Assembly: GCA_951406725.2 (NCBI GenBank)
Contig: OX597824.1
Location: forward strand, 87,110,001-87,174,000
Reading direction: 5' to 3'
From: Octopus vulgaris
Taxonomy: Eukaryota
DNA: 64,000 bases
Shown here: positions 1,263 to 54,100 of the stretch, one piece after another
Layout of the letters: each line of letters begins with the position of its first letter
Numbering within the stretch: position 1 is the first letter of the stretch
Made by a program: the position numbers and the translations under genes
Notes under the pieces: model-generated
The model's database searches: none
Told to the model about the DNA's origin: nothing
Seen by the model: only the letters and a program-made list of their open reading frames with translations

Positions 1263-1489
1263 GGCAAACATCTTTACCTTCATTTTGGGGTCGATTAAAT
1301 AAGTACCAGTTACGCACTGGGGTCGATATAATCGACTTAATCAGTTTATTTGTCCTCTCATGCTAACGATTCTGCCAGCTCGCTGCCTTAATTAATAATA
1401 ATAATAATAATGTTAGATATTACTCATTAGAGCTTTGTTGTATCCACTTGAATAATAAATGACCAACATGATAGTGCTGCATCTATGGT

Positions 1490-1832: not shown

Positions 1833-2067
1833 CTATTTCTTTATTACCCACAAGGGGCTAAACATAGAGGGGGACAAACAAGGACAGACATAGGTATTAA
1901 GTCGATTACATCGACCCCAGTGCGTAACTGGTACTTAATTTATCGACCCCGAAAGGATGAAAGGCAAAGTCGACCTCGGCGGAATTTGAACTCAGAACGT
2001 AACAGCAGACGAAATACGGCTACGCATTTTGCCCGGCGTGCTAACGATTCTGCCAGCTCGCCGCCTT
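1833..2067 (-). mobile_element. Family B tRNA-headed SINE, full monomer
   Basis: Head AAGGCGGCGAGCTGGCAG, B box GTTCAAATTC, central GCCTTTCATCCTTTCGGGGTCGATAAATTAAGTACC (resembles a conserved SINE central domain, MetaSINE-like from memory); 14-bp TSD ATTGAATTAAGTAC at 1819-1832 and 2068-2081. Confidence 0.9.
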
Positions 2068-2559: not shown

Positions 2560-3204
2560 CTGCAATGGTTCAAATAATTTCATCAACGATATAACACACA
2601 CAAATGAAATACATGCTAAGATAATTCACAAAAAAAAGGCAAATAAAAGAATGTTACAAAATGCAGAGAGCAGTGTACTACCAGGGATCAAATTAAGGGT
2701 TAGGTTCAAAATTCCAATACAACAATTGAATTCAAAACAAGACACTGGAAAATGGCTGGAGCATACAACTTCCAAAATGTAGCAAAAGCAACAATCAAGA
2801 TAAGGACACCAGTTTGACTAAAATAAACAGTATGCTTAATATAAAATAATTTTAAAAATTTTCTATTGAAGTAAAACATAAAATGGAGCAACATTTCCAA
2901 TACAAAGTTTACAAATAATTATTTTAATTAATATAACGTGTCTTGACTGGTACAACAATGCAGAGTGGACTATAATAACTGTTATAATTTAATTATTGAT
3001 AGCCTGATATGATATGATATTTTGGAATATAAAAATTCCTTCTTCAGATATCGTTAGTAATTAATTGAGTCACTGCTATAATCGGTTTTCCAATGGTTAA
3101 TGAAAATTGTTTTGTGGAAGCATCTCTGCAGTTGTCTCACGAAGCTCCTTCCTACGTATGGAGGCTAACAGCTGAGTAATTAGGTACCAATTCATCAAAG
3201 AAGT

Positions 3205-14110: not shown

Positions 14111-14119
14111 TAATGATTT

Positions 14120-14512
14120 CAGATTTTTGCTATAAAGGCAGATTGAGGAAGTGGGGTGGGATTAAGTTGATTACATCGACCCCAGTGCATAACTGATACT
14201 TATTTAATTGACCCCGAAAAGATGAAAGGCAAAGTCGACCTCGGCGGAATTTGAACGTAGAACATAGCAGCAGACAAACGTACCTATTTCTTTACTACCC
14301 ACAAGGGGCTAAACACAGAGAGGACAAACAAGGACAGACAAACGGATTAAGTCGATTATATCGACCCCAGTGCGTAACTGGTACTTATTTAATCAATCCT
14401 TAAAAGAATGAAAGGCAAAGTTGACCATGGCGGAATTTGAACTCTGAACGTAGCAGCAGACAAAATACTGCTAAGCATTTCGCCCGAGGTGTTAACGATT
14501 CTACTAGCTTGC
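14120..14512 (-). mobile_element. Family B SINE dimer (one head, two bodies)
   Basis: Junction ...TACCTATTTC at 14281-14290. Confidence 0.85.
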
Positions 14513-21480: not shown

Positions 21481-21651
21481 GTTTCTAAATGTCTTTGACA
21501 AACATTTACCTGGGGAATTAAGGGTTATACAAATGAATTAAAATAAAATTCAATATTGAAGTAATCTTTTGAAGTGTTGAACTTAGAAAATTCATCATCG
21601 AAAAACATGTTAATGTAATGGTTAATGAAAAAAAAAGCAAAAAGAACTCAC

Positions 21652-22494
21652 CTGGTGTATAATCATGTCATCGGGACTTGGGCTACGTGTATTTCTCCCT
21701 TCAGAGCTGATACTAGGTTCCTTAGGACTAGGACTTCGACACGCTTCTTTATTAATGTCGAATTCTGGGCTTTTACCATGACACAAACTCGTCCTTTTTC
21801 TAGGAGTTGGCGTCGGGACTGGGCTGTGCATCGAGTCACGGCGTGTTTCGCTATCATTCTCTTCCGAAGTAGCAGCTATGTTAGCAGTTTCCTCATCGGA
21901 CATACTTGGGCTTGGGCTATGACAGACATTTGGTTCATGTGGTTCTTCATCGCTAGCTGGAGTCGGGCTTGCAGGCCGCTCCGTCGGACTAGCACTATCG
22001 CTGCGGCTGTGAGATGGAGACTTGCGCTGTCCTTCCTCCTGCGTTTGTGGAATTTCTATTTCGACTTCAGCTTCGATGGCATTATCCTCTTCTGTCACTT
22101 CAGAAGCAGCCTCCTCTGCTGGTTTGCTTTCTTTTTCAATATCATGAACCACCATCTCATCCATTGTATCAGAAACAACAACGATATCATCTTCGTCATT
22201 ATTGTTATCAATTTCTTTCTTCAAGGAAGGTAAAGTGTCATACAAAGGACTGGATTCTTCAGTCTTGAGTGTAACACTTATCTCCTGACCATCACCCGAT
22301 TCTTTCATAACATTTTCGTATGTATCGTCATTGTCCGCTTTACCATTCACACTGACATTCTCATACACGGGATGAGCAAGGGGCTCACTGTTAGCATAGA
22401 TGTGTCCTTCGTTTAATTCAGACATGTCTTCGTCGTCTTTTACCTCATAATCTGTATCAAAATTATTTGAAATACCGTTTTCTTTTGGCTTTTC
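21652..22494 (-). CDS. Internal coding exon (843 bp, 281 aa, phase 0-0): acidic, Ser/Pro-rich disordered segment with clustered tyrosine motifs; gene not identified
   Basis: Branch point TACTAAT at 22533-22527; pyrimidine tract TCTCTCTTTTCTTGTCTTTGCAG|GAA; stop-free frame; raised GC; donor CAG|GTGAGT. Confidence 0.85.
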
Positions 22495-22794
22495 CTGCAA
22501 AGACAAGAAAAGAGAGACAATTTTTAATTAGTACGGAATTAGGAATTAAGTTTTAAATATTAAGCAGGATCAGAAATTAGGTTTTAATTTTAACAATATT
22601 TAAAGAAAAATTTCATGTAAGTAACCCTTATGACACCTGGTTCTATGATGCTAACTTCCTGGTTTAAAGTAATCTGAATTAAAACTCTCCATCAAGATAC
22701 CATGTCAATTTATGATTCAAACACCAGCTTAATAACAACTGAGTTATTTAAATAACTCCATCATTAGTTTCAGAATTAATAAAAAATACCACCT

Positions 22795-27039: not shown

Positions 27040-27569
27040 TCATGGGGCAAACTGCAACCCACACAATGCAACAAAAAAATTACCTATTTCTTTACTACCC
27101 ACAAGGGTAGAGAGGACAAACAAGGACAGACAAACGGATTAAGTCAATTATATCGACCCCAGTGCGTAACTGGTACTTAATTTATCGACTCCAAAAGGAT
27201 GAAAGGCAAAGTCTACCTCATCGGAATTTGAACTCAGAACATAATGGCAAACAAAATACCTATTTCGTTACTACCCACAAGGGGTTAAACACAGAGAGGA
27301 CAAACAAGGACAGACAAACAGATTAAGTCGATTACATCGACCCCAGTGCGTAACTGGTACTTAATTTATCAACTCTGAAAGGATGAAAGACAAAGTCGAC
27401 CTCGGCGGAATTTGAACTCAGAATGTAACGGCAGACGAAATACGGCTATACATTTCGCCCGGCATGCTAACGATTCTGCCAGCTCGCCTTTCTTTTCAGT
27501 AATGCGGCCCCACATGATGTTGAGCAATGACTCATGTGGCCCACTTCTCCAAAAAGTTGCCCATGCCTG
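27040..27569. mobile_element. hAT-type MITE hosting a family B dimer
   Basis: CATGGGGCAAAC ... GTTGCCCATGCCTG ends with GCGGCCC subterminal repeats; related copy at 45248-45437. Confidence 0.55.
27081..27489 (-). mobile_element. Family B SINE dimer
   Basis: Two bodies joined at AAATACCTATTTC (~27254-27266); single head. Confidence 0.9.
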
Positions 27570-33350: not shown

Positions 33351-33654
33351 AGGCACAGACATGGCTGTGTAGCAAGTAGCATGCTTACCAGCCACATGAT
33401 TCCCGTTCAGTCCCACTGTGTGGCACCTTGAGCAAGTGTCTTCTACTATAGCCTCGGGCCGACCAAAACCTTGTGAGTGGATTTGGTAGACAGAAACTAA
33501 TAGAAGCCTGTGTGGTAAGTAGCTTGCTTACTAACCACATGGTTCTGGGTTCAGTCCCACTGTGTGGCACCTTGGGCAAGTGTCTTCTACTATAGCCTCA
33601 GGCCGACCAAAGCCTTGTGAGTGGATTTGGTAGACAGAAACTGAAAGAAGCCCG

Positions 33655-41690: not shown

Positions 41691-42129
41691 TGAGACATTC
41701 TGAGCGAAAGAAAAGAAAGTACAAAGAGAAGTATGTCAACTACCTAACGTTGCAATCCGAAAGTTAATTTCCTATAACTTACGTTTGTTTGTTGTAAAGT
41801 GATAAAATGATGACGGAACTGGATGTTTTTAAATCATCCAACACCTTTACTGTTGTTGTTGTAGGTTCGAACCCAACTGAAGTCAGCAGTGCTTTTTTAT
41901 ACCCACGGATTCGTTTAAATTAAGTATCAATTATAATTAATAAGTACTTCTACTATAAGGACAAGGCCTGAAATTTTGTAAGGGTGGGGTGTAAGTCGAT
42001 AACATCGTTCCCAATGTTCAACTGATAATTTCTTTTGTAGACCCCAAAAGGAAAGTCGACCACGGCGGAATTTGAACTCAGAACGTGAATAGGGGGGGGG
42101 GGAATACCGTCAGGCGTGCTAACGATTAT

Positions 42130-43095
42130 TATTTCTTTATTGCCCACAAGGGACTAAACATAGAGGGGACAAACTAGGACAGACAAATGGATTAAGTCGA
42201 TTACATCGACCCCAGTGCGTAACTGGTACTTTATTTATCGACCCCGAAAGGATGAAAGGCAAAATCGACCTTCACGGAATTTGAACTTAGAACGTAATGG
42301 CAGACGAAATACCTATTTCTTTACTGCCCACAAGGGGCTAAACATAGAGGGACAAAAACAAGGACAAAGGGATTAAGTTGATTACATCGACCCCAGTGCG
42401 TAACTGGTACTTATTTAATCGATCCCGAAAGGATGAAAGGCAAAGTTGACCTCAGCGGAATTTGAACTCAGAACGTAGCGGCTGATGAAAGACCTATTTC
42501 TTTACTACCCACAAGGGGCTAAACATAGAGAGGACAAACAAGGACAGACAAAGGGATTAAGTCGATTACATCGACCCCAGTGCGTAACTGGTACTTATTT
42601 AATCGACCCCGAAAGGATGAAAGGCAAAGTCGACCTCGGCGGAATTTGAACTCAGAACGTGCGGCTGATGAAATATCTATTTCTTTACTACCCACAAGGG
42701 GCTAAACATAGAGAGGACAAACAAGGACAGACAAAGGGATTAAGTCGATTACATCGACCCCAGTGCGTAACTGGTACTTATTTAATCGACCCCGAAAGGA
42801 TGAAAGGCAAAGTCGACCTCGGCGGAATTTGAACTCAGAACGTGCGGCTGATGAAATATCTATTTCTTTACTACCCACAAGGGGCTAAACATAGAGAGGA
42901 CAAACAAGGACAGACAAAGGGATTAAGTCGATTACATCGACCCCAGTGCGTAACTGGTACTTATTTAATCGACCCCGAAAGGATGAAAGGCAAAGTCGAC
43001 CTCGGCAGAATTTGAACTCAGAACGTAGAGGCAGACGAAATACACCGATAAGCATTTCGTCCGGTGTGCTAACGTTTCTGCCAGCTAGTTGCCCC
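42130..43095 (-). mobile_element. Family B pentamer: one head plus five tandem 181-184-bp bodies
   Basis: Units start (plus strand) at 42130, 42314, 42495, 42678, 42861; units 3 and 4 read as identical; flanked by older B copies (41945-42125, 43110-43325). Confidence 0.95.
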
Positions 43096-43408
43096 ATTAA
43101 TAATAATTCTTTCTATTACAGGCAATAAGGGCTGAAATTTTGGCAGGTAGGGAGTTAGTCGATTACAACGATCTCAGTGCTCAACAGGCTTTTACATCAT
43201 CGGCCCCGAAAACATGAAATGCAATGTCGATCTCGACGGCATTTTAACTCAAAACGCAAAGGCGGAAGAAATACTGTTTTTTTTTCGCCCGGCCTACTTA
43301 AAGACTCTACCAGTTCGTTGCCTTATTTAATATTAATAATTTTAATTCAATCAACTGCGTCTTTTCTCTTCAAAAGTTTGGGTTTGTAATTAATCAGGCA
43401 AGCCATCA

Positions 43409-49760: not shown

Positions 49761-50201
49761 TGTTTGGTTATTATAGAACGTAAGAAAATTATTTCGGAAT
49801 TCAACAGAAACCAATTACGTGGTTCCGAGATCAAATCGACCATGTTGCTTCTCCTTAAGCAAGTGTCTTCTAATATAGCTTTGTGTTGACCTTATGAGTG
49901 GAATTTGGCAGACGAGAAGCCTGTCGTATATTTGCGTGTAGGATGTCCTCACATTGAAACAGCTACCAACAAAAATCAAAATTCGATGTTTGGGCCATTG
50001 CATTAAGAATTGAACCTATGTTATCGGTAACAGAAGCAGTGAATTTTAATTACTGTGCGAGAGAGAGAAAGAACAGAAAATTATTGAATTGGACAAGTAG
50101 CTTACATATAAATGCATATCATTACATAGGTCTGTCTTTGAAATGGTGAATCTACGAGTGAAGAGGCTTCGGTGGGAGGACATTTCTTGATCAACACCAC
50201 A

Positions 50202-50894
50202 CGTAAGTGTGGGAACGAAATTTACTTAGTGGTGGGGAGGGTGAACCCAGGTCCAAAAGTTTTTACAAACAAGGTCGAGTTTTTTTCAATTTTAGTATCA
50301 AAACAAACAGGTAATATAATAATAATAATAATAATGATGATAATAACGGTTTCAAAATTTTGGCACAAGGCCAGCAATTTCGGGGAGGGGAAAATCGATT
50401 GCATCGATCCCAGTACTCAATTGGTTCTGATTTTATCAACCCCGGAAGGATGAAAGGCAAAGTCGACCTCGGCGGAATTTGAACTCAGAACATAAAGACG
50501 GACGAAATACCTATTTCTTTACTACCCACAAGGGGCTAAACACTGAGGGGACAAACAAGGACAGACAGACGGATTAAGTCGATTATATCGACCCCAGTGC
50601 GTAACTGGTACTTATTTAATCGATCCCGAAAGGATGAAAGACAAAGTCGACCTCAGCGGAATTTGAACTCAGAACATAAAGACGGACGAAATGCCGCTAA
50701 GCATTTTGTCCGGCGTGCTAACGATTCTGTCAACGGCCAATAATGGATAAGTAATGTTTCAAATGAGCCCAGAAATGTTTCTACGCTCGTTGTTCGTTTT
50801 GCCGATAAAGTTTTTCAGGAGGATGTTCAAAGCGTTTTCATTGCCCCTAAAAATTTTAGAGGGTGCATTTGCACCCCCTATTCCCGAGCCTATG
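50202..50894. mobile_element. hAT-like MITE with internal (AAT)n, hosting a family B dimer (50350-50732)
   Basis: TIR CGTAAGTGTGGGAA / TTCCCGAGCCTATG; TSD ACACCACA / ACACCACG; both halves homologous to 55432-57480. Confidence 0.7.
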
Positions 50895-50917
50895 ACACCA
50901 CGCATGTCTATCTGCAA

Positions 50918-51100
50918 AAGGTGGCGAGCTGGAAGAATCGTTAGAGTATTGGACAAAATGCTTAGCAGCATTTCTTTCCAGCTTCACGTACTGAGTTCAA
51001 TTTCCGCCGAGGTCGACTTAACCTTTTTCATCCTGTCGCAGTCGATAAAATAAAGCACCAACCAGGCGCAAAATTTCGAGCCTTGTGCCTATAGCAAGCA
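50918..51100 (+). mobile_element. Family B SINE, degenerate
   Basis: AAGGTGGCGAGCTGG head and CTGAGTTCAA...CCGCCGAGGTCGAC. Confidence 0.75.
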
Positions 51101-54100
51101 GAAAGAATTATCAGAATGTATATAAGCGAAAATATGTATCATAGGAATGAGTCGGAAACAGTGTCAACATTGTGTATCGTGTGAATTGCAGCCCGTTAGG
51201 GTTAGCCTGTGTATGTGAGTGTCTAAAAACGAACACATGAAGTGTGTGTATGAGTGCTTCTCTTGTATTGACTTACAAGCTCGTATTATAACACACAAGG
51301 GGAGGCCTGTTTCCTTTGCTTATGTTTCAGGACTCTAACATTCTTCTGTAACATTCCCTTCCCTATTTTTATTAGTCTTAAAGCCTAGTTTTGTTACACA
51401 AAATTACACATCTTACTCCCTCCCAACCCATCTTAATCGCTATATATTGTCAGATGCAGAAAATATTTTTATATGAATTTAATTTCAAATTAAAAAGGTT
51501 TGATTGTAAAAACTTAAGCTAGTATCTTGTTTTTCTGAGAAAAGAAATACGGCAAATAAAAACAGTTATTTTGCTCTCTTTGATCCTTTTAAAAGTATTA
51601 TTACTACTATCATCATTGTTCCACCGAGATCGACTTTGCCTTTCATCTTTCCGAGCACTGGGGTCGATATAACTGACTAACACTCACCCATCACCCAAAT
51701 TTCAGGCCTAGGGCCTGTAAGTAGAATAATTAGTTTGACAAGATGGACACTTCTCAAGCTCTCTCTCTCTCTTACACATTCCAGCCAAACAAATATGCCG
51801 TCTCATCTTTCCCGCTGCCTTTTTTCTACCACTGATACAGCGGTTTCTGCTTTTCGAAGCTGGATCAATGGTTTCTTGTCACATTCCCCTAAGATACTCT
51901 CGATTTACCTATCTCTTCTCAATCCGTCATCTATCATCTGTCCATCCTAGGCCCCCCAATATGAACCACTGCGGTCAGTTATTCCTCCCAGAAAGTCGAC
52001 CCTCTAAAAATTTCTCCCTTTGTACATGTTTTCTCAGCAGTCGTCGAATAGCAACTGTTCAAAAGGAATGTTAACTATGTCGATCTTTACTGATCTCGGA
52101 GGGTTTGCGAAGGCCATAGACACAACCTCCTTCTGCAGGCCGATCCATTAAAATAATATACTGGTATTCGCGAGTGCGCGCACACCCAAACGCAATTAAC
52201 GAAACGATGATGCGTATAACAGGCAGCGTATCGAACGATCATTTACATTTCTGTTGACGCTTGTGAGCAGTGATGCATGTATACAATGTGTCAGAGATGA
52301 AGGTGTAAAAATAGTAATTTATATGTGAAAGTACGTGTAGCAGGCATGTTTTTTTCTAGACAGCATTTAGACTATAAGACAGACACAACATTCGTGTTAT
52401 TGGCGCTAGGTACACGCACACACACCGATAATGTCTATGAATACCGACTGATAAATATGTAGTAAACACCTGTGTATCATTCATACAACAGCATCACACA
52501 CACACATGAGATCTTGGGTTGTAAATACGACAGAATGAATAGATTAAAGTAAACAAAGCAAGCAGAAACTTAGGGGTTTTTTTCTGTTTGGTTCCAGTAA
52601 GACTTTTTAAAATTAAACATCATATACAAAATTGGAAATACGAATGATTAAACATAGAATTTATATTAGAATGCGTTATTATGGAGAATTACAATTACTG
52701 TTTTAAATCAATTTGTAAAAAAGTAATAAACGGGATTGGAATAAAATCAATACGAGATGATTTGAAAATAAAGACAAAGATATTCTACCTTGGGTTTTGA
52801 TATTCTCTGTTGGTGAACAGAACCCGGTGATGTTGACCTTAAGTGTGATTAAAACCCAGGAATTTTAGAAGCAAAGGCACGATAAAGTCGGGGACAAACG
52901 GGACCTTTTTTTTTTGCGGGATTGCTGTAGATGTTAATTTCGTTTTGTACGTACACTCGTGGAAATTAAAGCGAAATGGTGTTAAAGTTCTCCTTCTTGT
53001 GACAAGAACTGTTCGTGGATGTGGATGGATGTCGATAGAGAGAAAAGTTTTTTCGTTTGTTTTTTTTTTTTTAAATATTGGAAAGTATCTGGTGACAATC
53101 TGTGAATGGAGACAGAAATATTCTAGCAGGCTTGCATTAGTTTGAAATGGAATTGGGAGAGTGATTTAACAATGTCACAACACACTTCCTTATAGTCACT
53201 CCTCTAAGAAAGAATGTGTAACTAAATAAAATAAACGAGTGTATATAGATATGAGTGTGTATGTGTGTGTGTGAGCGCGCGTGTATATGTGACCGTCTGT
53301 GTGTGCGCGCACTTGTGTCCGAGTGTATTTAAACATACATACATACGCATCCCGTACATAAAACCTAACTTTTTTCTCTATTGTATACGGAGGTCAACTT
53401 CTATGCTAAATATATATAAAATGGGATCTTATTTTTTGTTTTATCTGTAATAAATATACGAGAAGAAGCTAAACATCTTAAGACCTATTTATACGCTAAA
53501 ATCAACATGTAAACGACAATTAATGTAAACACTATATGTATGTATGTATATTTATATATACTTTTATGTGAATACAAATAAACATTTATGACACTTGTTC
53601 ACACGAACATACATTCGATTCATAGTCGATTTTATCAAACAATCCAATTTATTAGACACACATACAAACATACATACACATGCTTAAACACACGTATGTA
53701 TATATGTATGTATGTATGTATTTTTAAAAATCCTTCTTACATATGTATACACACATGTGAGTGTATGTGTCCCTCTCTCTATATACACACAAACATACAC
53801 ACAAATGCATGTAGTCATACGCATAGACTACATATCTATATATCATACACACACTCTCACAACACATATATACACATATGTTACACACAAAGACACAACG
53901 CATTGGCGGCCGGATTAAGTCCAACAGATGCCCTAAGCACAAACCAACAATAGTCTCCCCCACCATTACCTCGACCTACCATTGTCTCACTGACAAGACA
54001 TTCTACAGCATTAAGAGATTGTAATGTGAAATAGATTAAAAATTCAGTGTTCTTTAACGCTGTAACCTCACAGCTATATCAAATACAAACTGCTTTTTAA

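Follow-up and report, generated by a model that had tools for sequence, protein, structure and literature searches.

How does a SINE come to stand in tandem with every later unit beginning at the same internal point? We addressed this question in the window, i.e., the whole 64,000-nucleotide stretch of Octopus vulgaris DNA analyzed here, and in the 2.8-Gb genome that was searched. An earlier note on the window had described a pentamer, three dimers and a monomer, and had proposed two possible origins, either rolling reverse transcription of a ~183-nt circular RNA or site-specific insertion of the SINE into its own earlier copies. All five loci exist, on the minus strand; however, the pentamer continues into a sixth unit, old and B-tailed, which the fifth unit meets at position 15, i.e., at a second restart point. 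The arrays arise by self-insertion of young SINEs into older copies and not by rolling-circle copying. Our main reading, to which we give a probability of roughly 0.65, is that young SINEs were inserted at a fixed position in older copies of the same orientation through target-primed reverse transcription (TPRT) with L1/Tx1-type enzymes, while run-on RNA paired with the site.

The element is a 232-nt tRNA-type SINE, and its window copies are all on the minus strand (five loci compared). It consists of a tRNA-like head with a B box (positions 1-47), a body up to position 166 and a tail, which is either tail A (ending in GAAATA) or any of four B tails. The copies in the window are as follows.

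Unit 1, 42860..43097, minus strand: tRNA-like head (1-47; first ~10 nt diverged), body and LINE-derived tail A of the GGGTAGT variant.
Unit 2, 42677..42859, minus strand: no head, restart at 48/49; 5' end like unit 4, remainder like unit 1.
Unit 3, 42494..42676, minus strand: same sequence as unit 2.
Unit 4, 42313..42493, minus strand: no head; carries the GGGCAGT tail variant and differs from unit 1 at 9 of 161 nt.
Unit 5, 42130..42312, minus strand: no head; tail variant GGGCAAT; meets the next unit at position 15.
Unit 6, 41945..42129 (start approximate), minus strand: old B-tailed SINE from position 15 on, overlooked in the earlier note.
Separate old B-tailed SINE, 43104..43325, minus strand: 74% identical to the window monomer; abuts the array head.
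Dimer 1, proximal unit, 14284..14512, minus strand: tail A.
Dimer 1, distal unit, 14115..14283, minus strand: B-type tail; 16/100 differences from the proximal body.
Dimer 2, proximal unit, 27260..27488, minus strand: tail A.
Dimer 2, distal unit, 27084..27259, minus strand: tail A; 11/100 differences from the proximal body.
Dimer 3, proximal unit, 50511..50732, minus strand: head and positions 48-67 old and of B3 type, followed by a young body and tail of type A.
Dimer 3, distal unit, 50345..50510, minus strand: old, B3-tailed; starts GGTA, where the head copy of that site reads GGCA.
Free A monomer, 1833..2065, minus strand: 14-bp TSD at 1819-1832 and 2068-2081.

TRF reported a period of 183 with 5.0 copies at 42130-43043, and each later unit restarts at 48/49, in agreement with the ~183-bp units and single restart point described before. 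Past its 5' end, unit 2 has 1 difference from unit 1 in 165 nt. In the assembly, unit 3 repeats unit 2 without any difference over 183 bp; both are hybrids with the start of unit 4 and the remainder of unit 1, and unit 2 was probably made by local unequal exchange. Unit 6 shows 16-20 differences in 91 nt from units 1-5 and is probably the original target of the array. In two dimers (14120 and 50350) the distal unit carries a different tail, as had been noticed, and these tails are older. The proximal unit of dimer 3 is best read as a homology-resolved insertion. The monomer is TSD-flanked, again as noticed, and its TSD starts GTA, like the junction continuation. Three other features were recorded in passing. 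Another SINE-like repeat forms a two-copy tandem of period 144 at 33365-33652 and may build arrays similarly. SINE pieces in inverted orientation, resembling twin-priming inversions, occur at window 1280-1390, L110 1417-1700, L119 1473-2030 and L149 1401-1720. A stop-free frame of 301 aa (21622-22527, minus strand), acidic and Pro/Ser-rich, is probably a host-gene exon.

The SINE head contains a B-box-like GAGTTCAAATTCC and an A-box-like stretch by sequence reading, ARAGORN predicts no tRNA gene in the SINE, and there is no open reading frame of at least 120 aa across the window array. Judged from its letters, therefore, the element has the A/B-box head, short length and non-coding nature of a tRNA-derived SINE. 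It also has the variable TSDs (score of at least 8 in 21/40 monomers versus 2/150 null pairs) and the LINE-related 3' tail of that class. The Pol III terminator TTTT is absent from the SINE consensus and from the dimer, and folding of the monomer gave an uninformative z = -1.6. The SINE may resemble the MetaSINE superfamily, in which a 66-bp Meta-domain directly follows the tRNA head.

A junction census had been suggested in the earlier note, and we carried it out genome-wide. The position-48 junction is tail A followed by a restart at 48 (GGTATTTC). Its 27-nt sequence has 23,606 exact matches in the genome and the reversed control pattern has 0; that is, the junction does not occur by chance. 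The main tail variant, GGGTAGT, has 65,991 matches and the second, GGGCAAT, has 18,083. Among the matches listed, hand counts gave restarts at ~48 for 70/100 GGGTAGT tails and at 15 for 0, versus 8/100 at 48 and 16/100 at 15 for GGGCAAT tails; this linkage of tail variant and junction is significant (p = 2e-12). The position-15 junction has 2,376 exact matches. The loci listed lie within the first few Mb of contig C1, and pattern matches served to choose several of the samples. B1-tailed copies followed by position 15-17 of another SINE were also seen (L072 3391, L101, L133), where the natural end AGAAA matches the site.

We then counted units in the window and in L001-L120, the least-selected loci, chosen by tail or junction (285 elements). 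Among 104 arrays, 68 have 2 units, 19 have 3, 8 have 4 and 6 have 5, and the remaining three have 6, 7 and 11. Restarts fall at 48-51 in 164/171 cases, and a head starts 89/104 arrays. The last unit ends in tail A in 42 arrays and in a B tail in 47, and is truncated in 15. A rough extrapolation (65,991 x 0.70 + 18,083 x 0.24 junctions, with 1.6 junctions per array) gives ~30,000 arrays, which makes self-insertion one of the main ways by which the SINE has multiplied in this genome.

The junction had been described as an inverted repeat with minor variants. The 6-bp repeat is intact at 4/7 position-48 junctions in the window and not at the rest, and it is absent from the position-15 junction. 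Therefore, the palindrome is not required for arrays. It occurs at this single place in the SINE body and may have helped found the position-48 junction.

We examined whether one circular template could have supplied all units. Rolling reverse transcription of a 183-nt RNA circle, the mode of copying proposed for retrozymes, would account for the constant junction, for one headless four-unit array (L025) and for a unit length within the 170-400 nt given for metazoan retrozymes in the available text of PMC7229834. However, the two units of AA dimers (n = 33) differ by 10.4%, like random pairs of A copies (10.0%), and their tail sites agree at 0.42 versus 0.46 when permuted, although body sites agree somewhat more (0.63 versus 0.49). 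Dimer units thus come from different templates, which bears on the suggested comparison of units by relatedness or age: dimers are as unlike as random pairs, and long arrays are partly local copies. In addition, 47 of the 104 last units are B-tailed, and a headless circle cannot supply the head present on 89 arrays. A search of the array for a hammerhead or any other Rfam family returned three chance-level matches only. The hammerhead core CUGANGA is found on neither strand of the consensus or the circularized unit, and its 6 window matches all lie outside these loci. That is, the SINE has neither the hammerhead per unit nor the single template per insertion of a retrozyme, and we consider the circle hardly credible at all.

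Local duplication, in contrast, has a real but secondary share. Longer arrays lengthen by it: in arrays of at least three A units, 26/90 neighbouring units are within 2% of each other and 37/90 within 4%. Meanwhile, 87/104 arrays hold 2-3 units and only 3/104 hold six or more. The argument that ordinary duplication would not reuse one junction was therefore half right, since local unequal exchange in an existing dimer does reuse it. A four-unit array without a head (L025 1290-2240) has a ~55 bp duplication on its flanks and adjoins an old headless copy. The local copies, including the identical units 2 and 3 of the window, would fit a single dimeric master that spread the junction, with unequal crossing-over making all longer arrays. 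Such a master is contradicted by the two junction types, by nested insertions and by distal units of four tail subfamilies that form no clusters. It is refuted as the sole origin and very improbable as a general account, whereas local exchange holds as a secondary growth step.

The age of the last units was compared by tail subfamily. Mean pairwise divergence is 14.9% for B1 (n = 59), 18.8% for B2 (n = 19) and 21.5% for B3 (n = 30; minimum 12.6%). Free copies diverge by 16.3-27.7%; the last units are close to or somewhat below this range, without close clusters. The top counts of shared variants in this comparison reflect alignment gaps in common, and we set them aside. Two old distal units were searched for a sibling or source; among 40 candidates scored each, of 2,853 and 4,357, none exceeded 81% and 87%, respectively. 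Some distal units end near position 106; the idea that these are Pol III ends was rejected, as no TSD follows them.

The type case of the nested form, L012, has a diverged head (1-63), a young full copy and a 75%-identical remainder from position 48, enclosed by an outer TSD. The pattern of the nested 5' joint (position 48-58, then a new head) has 130 exact matches. We inspected 29 distinct loci by eye: 23 show nesting at 48, with a duplication of 11-22 bp and the old head upstream, and 2 are ambiguous. The other 4 have a head fragment inside the insert and lack a restart at 48, suggesting template jumps. Nested cases were also found at L012, L059, L126, L127, L155, L157, L159, L165 and L211. 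Both copies of the duplication carry rare or subfamily-specific variants at L264, L274, L275, L127 and L059. The nested form is a minority, ~5 in 100 less-selected arrays. It can expand, as at G000:C10:17996023-17996501 (L266), where the 64-bp head plus duplication stands eight times in tandem.

Most arrays have one head. In 30 single-head arrays, the heads before old distal units are off consensus at 46/619 sites of positions 16-47 (7.4%), compared with 66/1402 (4.7%) in A monomers and 177/1142 (15.5%) in free old copies; the proximal bodies are young. The intermediate value indicates a mixture, in which roughly a quarter keep the old head of the target and three quarters look young. An old head on a young body is seen at L179, L203, L207 and window 50511. 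We read such arrays as in-place insertions in which the cDNA would have replaced the target's head partly or fully. Together, the nested old heads, the diverse old last units and the old heads on young bodies support the second proposal of the earlier note, i.e., site-specific insertion into earlier copies with the 5' end resolved by homology.

A composite made at the RNA or cDNA level and then inserted at a new site could also look like an array. The reverse transcriptase would jump from position 48 to the 3' end of another SINE RNA, aided by GAAAUA/UAUUUC pairing, or read-through composites would be retrotransposed again. Such chimeras agree with the inverted repeat at just this body site, the predominance of young heads, the head fragments within inserts (L263, L268, L273, L280), the multi-unit blocks (L083, L127) and the young-looking TSDs of A-B1 arrays (18/340 mismatches). 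TSDs of A-B3 arrays look old, however, with 15/167 mismatches versus 12/286 in A monomers (p = 0.04) and 18/148 in free B3 copies (p = 0.36). A chimera would need a source locus for every old distal unit, and none was found for L189 or L153 among the 40 candidates scored for each. It would also not produce old upstream heads with the duplication from position 48, and the position-15 junction lacks the inverted repeat. We therefore regard chimeras as quite unlikely to be the general explanation. Some observations do weigh against in-place insertion: about three quarters of the heads before old distal units look young, and in A-B dimers rare distal-unit variants are seldom shared with the unit's own proximal unit (9/177 cases; permutation ~1.5). 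Some composites may also have moved as blocks (L083, L127; L153 and L189 have perfect 15-16 bp TSDs). A search with duplicated flanks gave no usable empty/filled pair among the matches listed. When reads were aligned to window 49800-51500, the signal was swamped by other copies. At L207 the empty allele was not seen in the reads, and one contig of run X8 has the filled junction and may be a paralogue.

The top RVT_1 matches were rejected as helper LINEs: most belong to one young LINE with an (ATT)n end, there are some others, and none has the shared tail. These are presumably CR1/L2-type and RTE-type LINEs. The (ATT)n-ended family (L228-L250) is very young, with many near-identical copies and frames up to 949 aa. 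A search with zf-RVT found tail-sharing LINEs with APE-RT-zf-RVT ORFs of 1131-1132 aa, which we take from their domain architecture to be Tx1. Their ORFs match Pfam Exo_endo_phos, RVT_1 and zf-RVT, and the top PDB match is human L1 ORF2p (2e-69); ESM Atlas gave no clade name for them. The last 45-48 nt of these LINEs match SINE tail A, including the GCCC-loop-GGGY hairpin (43/48 at L327). That is, a partner LINE with APE, RT and a shared 3' end exists, as in SINEU-type elements. SINE position 48 or 15 follows the LINE 3' end in 0/44 readable tails (70 zf-RVT loci). When we used a pattern designed to favour LINE tails at SINE sites, 48/49 loci proved to be SINE variants, and one ORF1-bearing relative lies at SINE position 15 (L382, 1 among 49 loci). 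Each tail-sharing LINE family has its own recurring downstream sequence (L316/L325/L329/L331/L347; L323/L337/L344; L327/L328/L330/L352), suggesting other preferred targets. Separately, an RTE-like LINE 3' end at L224 (~3020-3050) runs directly into 16 nt of SINE tail A, which may represent a template switch or a very short SINE insertion.

We next considered what sets the site. Free flanks start GG in 18/30 GGGTAGT copies versus 7/76 GGGCAAT copies (p = 2e-7), while the AGA flank bias of the second variant was non-significant (11/76 versus 1/30, p = 0.17). In 25/33 free insertions the TSD starts at most 1 nt from the tail end, often with GGTATT and sometimes with (A)GAAA(C) or TATAT. Free copies thus appear to land at sites resembling their own variant's junction. 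Unselected distal B2/B3 units start GGTA in 10/10 cases, compared with 11/67 free copies. Next-unit sequence lies inside TSDs at L015 (29 nt in a 22-bp TSD) and L018 (26 nt in a 12-bp TSD), indicating that some templates ran past the tail. The latter locus (1222-1742) also has two A copies tail to tail across 57 bp, each then part of a position-48 restart. The variant-linked second junction and the free copies on junction-like sites suggest a role of run-on RNA. That is, run-on RNA seems to help choose the target; an endonuclease preference is possible too, and both may act.

Self-insertion could also be real with the site set solely by the helper's endonuclease, two Tx1-type helpers having cut at 48 and at 15 at different times. 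This would explain why free TSDs start GGTATT at a constant offset, why LINE families have recurring downstream sequences of their own and why L382 lies at position 15; in addition, tail variants may differ in age, and the available text of PMC4494074 treats the endonuclease as the main setter of target choice. An endonuclease alone does not account for the extension inside the TSDs of L015 and L018, or for the three classes of free flank, each of which resembles one of the contexts seen behind the tail. GGGTAGT tails are sometimes at AGAAAC sites (L041, L066, L068), position 50 at window 50511 reads C in its own head copy where the distal copy has T, and a LINE occupies site 48 in 0/44 cases. 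On balance we consider an endonuclease acting alone unlikely.

In our preferred reading, insertion guided by run-on RNA, Pol III would read through past the tail, as TTTT is absent from consensus and dimer, and would give an RNA that runs on into the next unit. The first 3-12 nt of the run-on would anneal at the nick, and enzymes of the tail-sharing L1/Tx1-type LINE would perform TPRT. The cDNA would then meet the homologous head of the target and either pair within it, so that the old head stays, or replace it with a young one; the second head would be absent for this reason. In a minority the cDNA would not pair with the target head, and the nested form would persist. Each success would be a new template with the same junction, giving positive feedback. 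Going further, the SINE may carry a heritable RNA guide, in which a borrowed L1/Tx1-type enzyme is steered by a few post-tail bases acquired at a previous landing site. One such tag would have matched the SINE's own head and led to runaway homing, with young promoters overwriting decayed ones and old copies revived as donors. We hold this extension tentatively, at somewhat less than an even chance.

The arrays represent thousands of natural experiments on RNA 3' end versus endonuclease in setting the TPRT target, and also on the joining of 5' ends in cases where the cDNA is homologous to its target. They offer a retrotransposition-first route to SINE-derived tandem repeats, which are usually ascribed to recombination. 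Caution is needed with annotation, as single annotated repeat copies mix ages and subfamilies. If the tag alone retargets an L1-like enzyme, this would bear on programmable insertion.

Finally, we compared the arrays with known systems, in each case with the available text of the source. L1-Tx1 and SINE families were recently active in an octopus, and that text makes no mention of nesting (PMC13282606). Metazoan non-LTR retrozymes are similar in unit length and tandem order, but the SINE has no hammerhead, has a tRNA-like head and forms heterogeneous units (PMC7229834). The squamate sSat likewise has tandem units shorter than the SINE and arrays ending in SINE parts. It is explained mainly by unequal recombination and reaches up to hundreds of units, whereas here most arrays have 2-3 units and retrotransposition comes first (PMC10702118). 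The octopus arrays thus share its tandem sub-SINE units with SINE ends and not its satellite-like state of at least 4 middle monomers, given that so few reach six units. The TSD-(SINE)n-TSD arrays of the blood clam resemble ours in a head on the first unit, head-truncated repeats, outer TSDs and mixed families; they comprise ~3% of SINEs, unequal recombination is proposed for them, and neither a fixed self-target nor a helper tail is described in the text available (PMC11481361).

Two systems come closer. SINEU-3 of crocodilians prefers a target that lies within another repeat, a preference ascribed to the Tx1 machinery, and forms tandems by sequential insertion, as here (PMC4494074). It targets a Mariner DNA transposon, and the TSD is sandwiched between full copies, whereas the present SINE targets its own head and a single head is the rule in its arrays; unlike Tx1-Mar, no LINE was found at site 48 in 44 LINE ends. 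In R2Ol, RNA that extends into the target anneals there and raises accuracy and efficiency, like the run-on priming proposed here (PMC6795142). R2 is autonomous, uses a restriction-like endonuclease and inserts into 28S rDNA, whereas in the octopus the tag would be borne by a passenger SINE and varies by subfamily, and the target is dispersed. In the open-access literature that we searched, we saw no account of a SINE with its own head as the target. By analogy, the mechanism would be like SINEU/Tx1-Mar targeting combined with R2-like read-through priming, but with the SINE's own head as the target.
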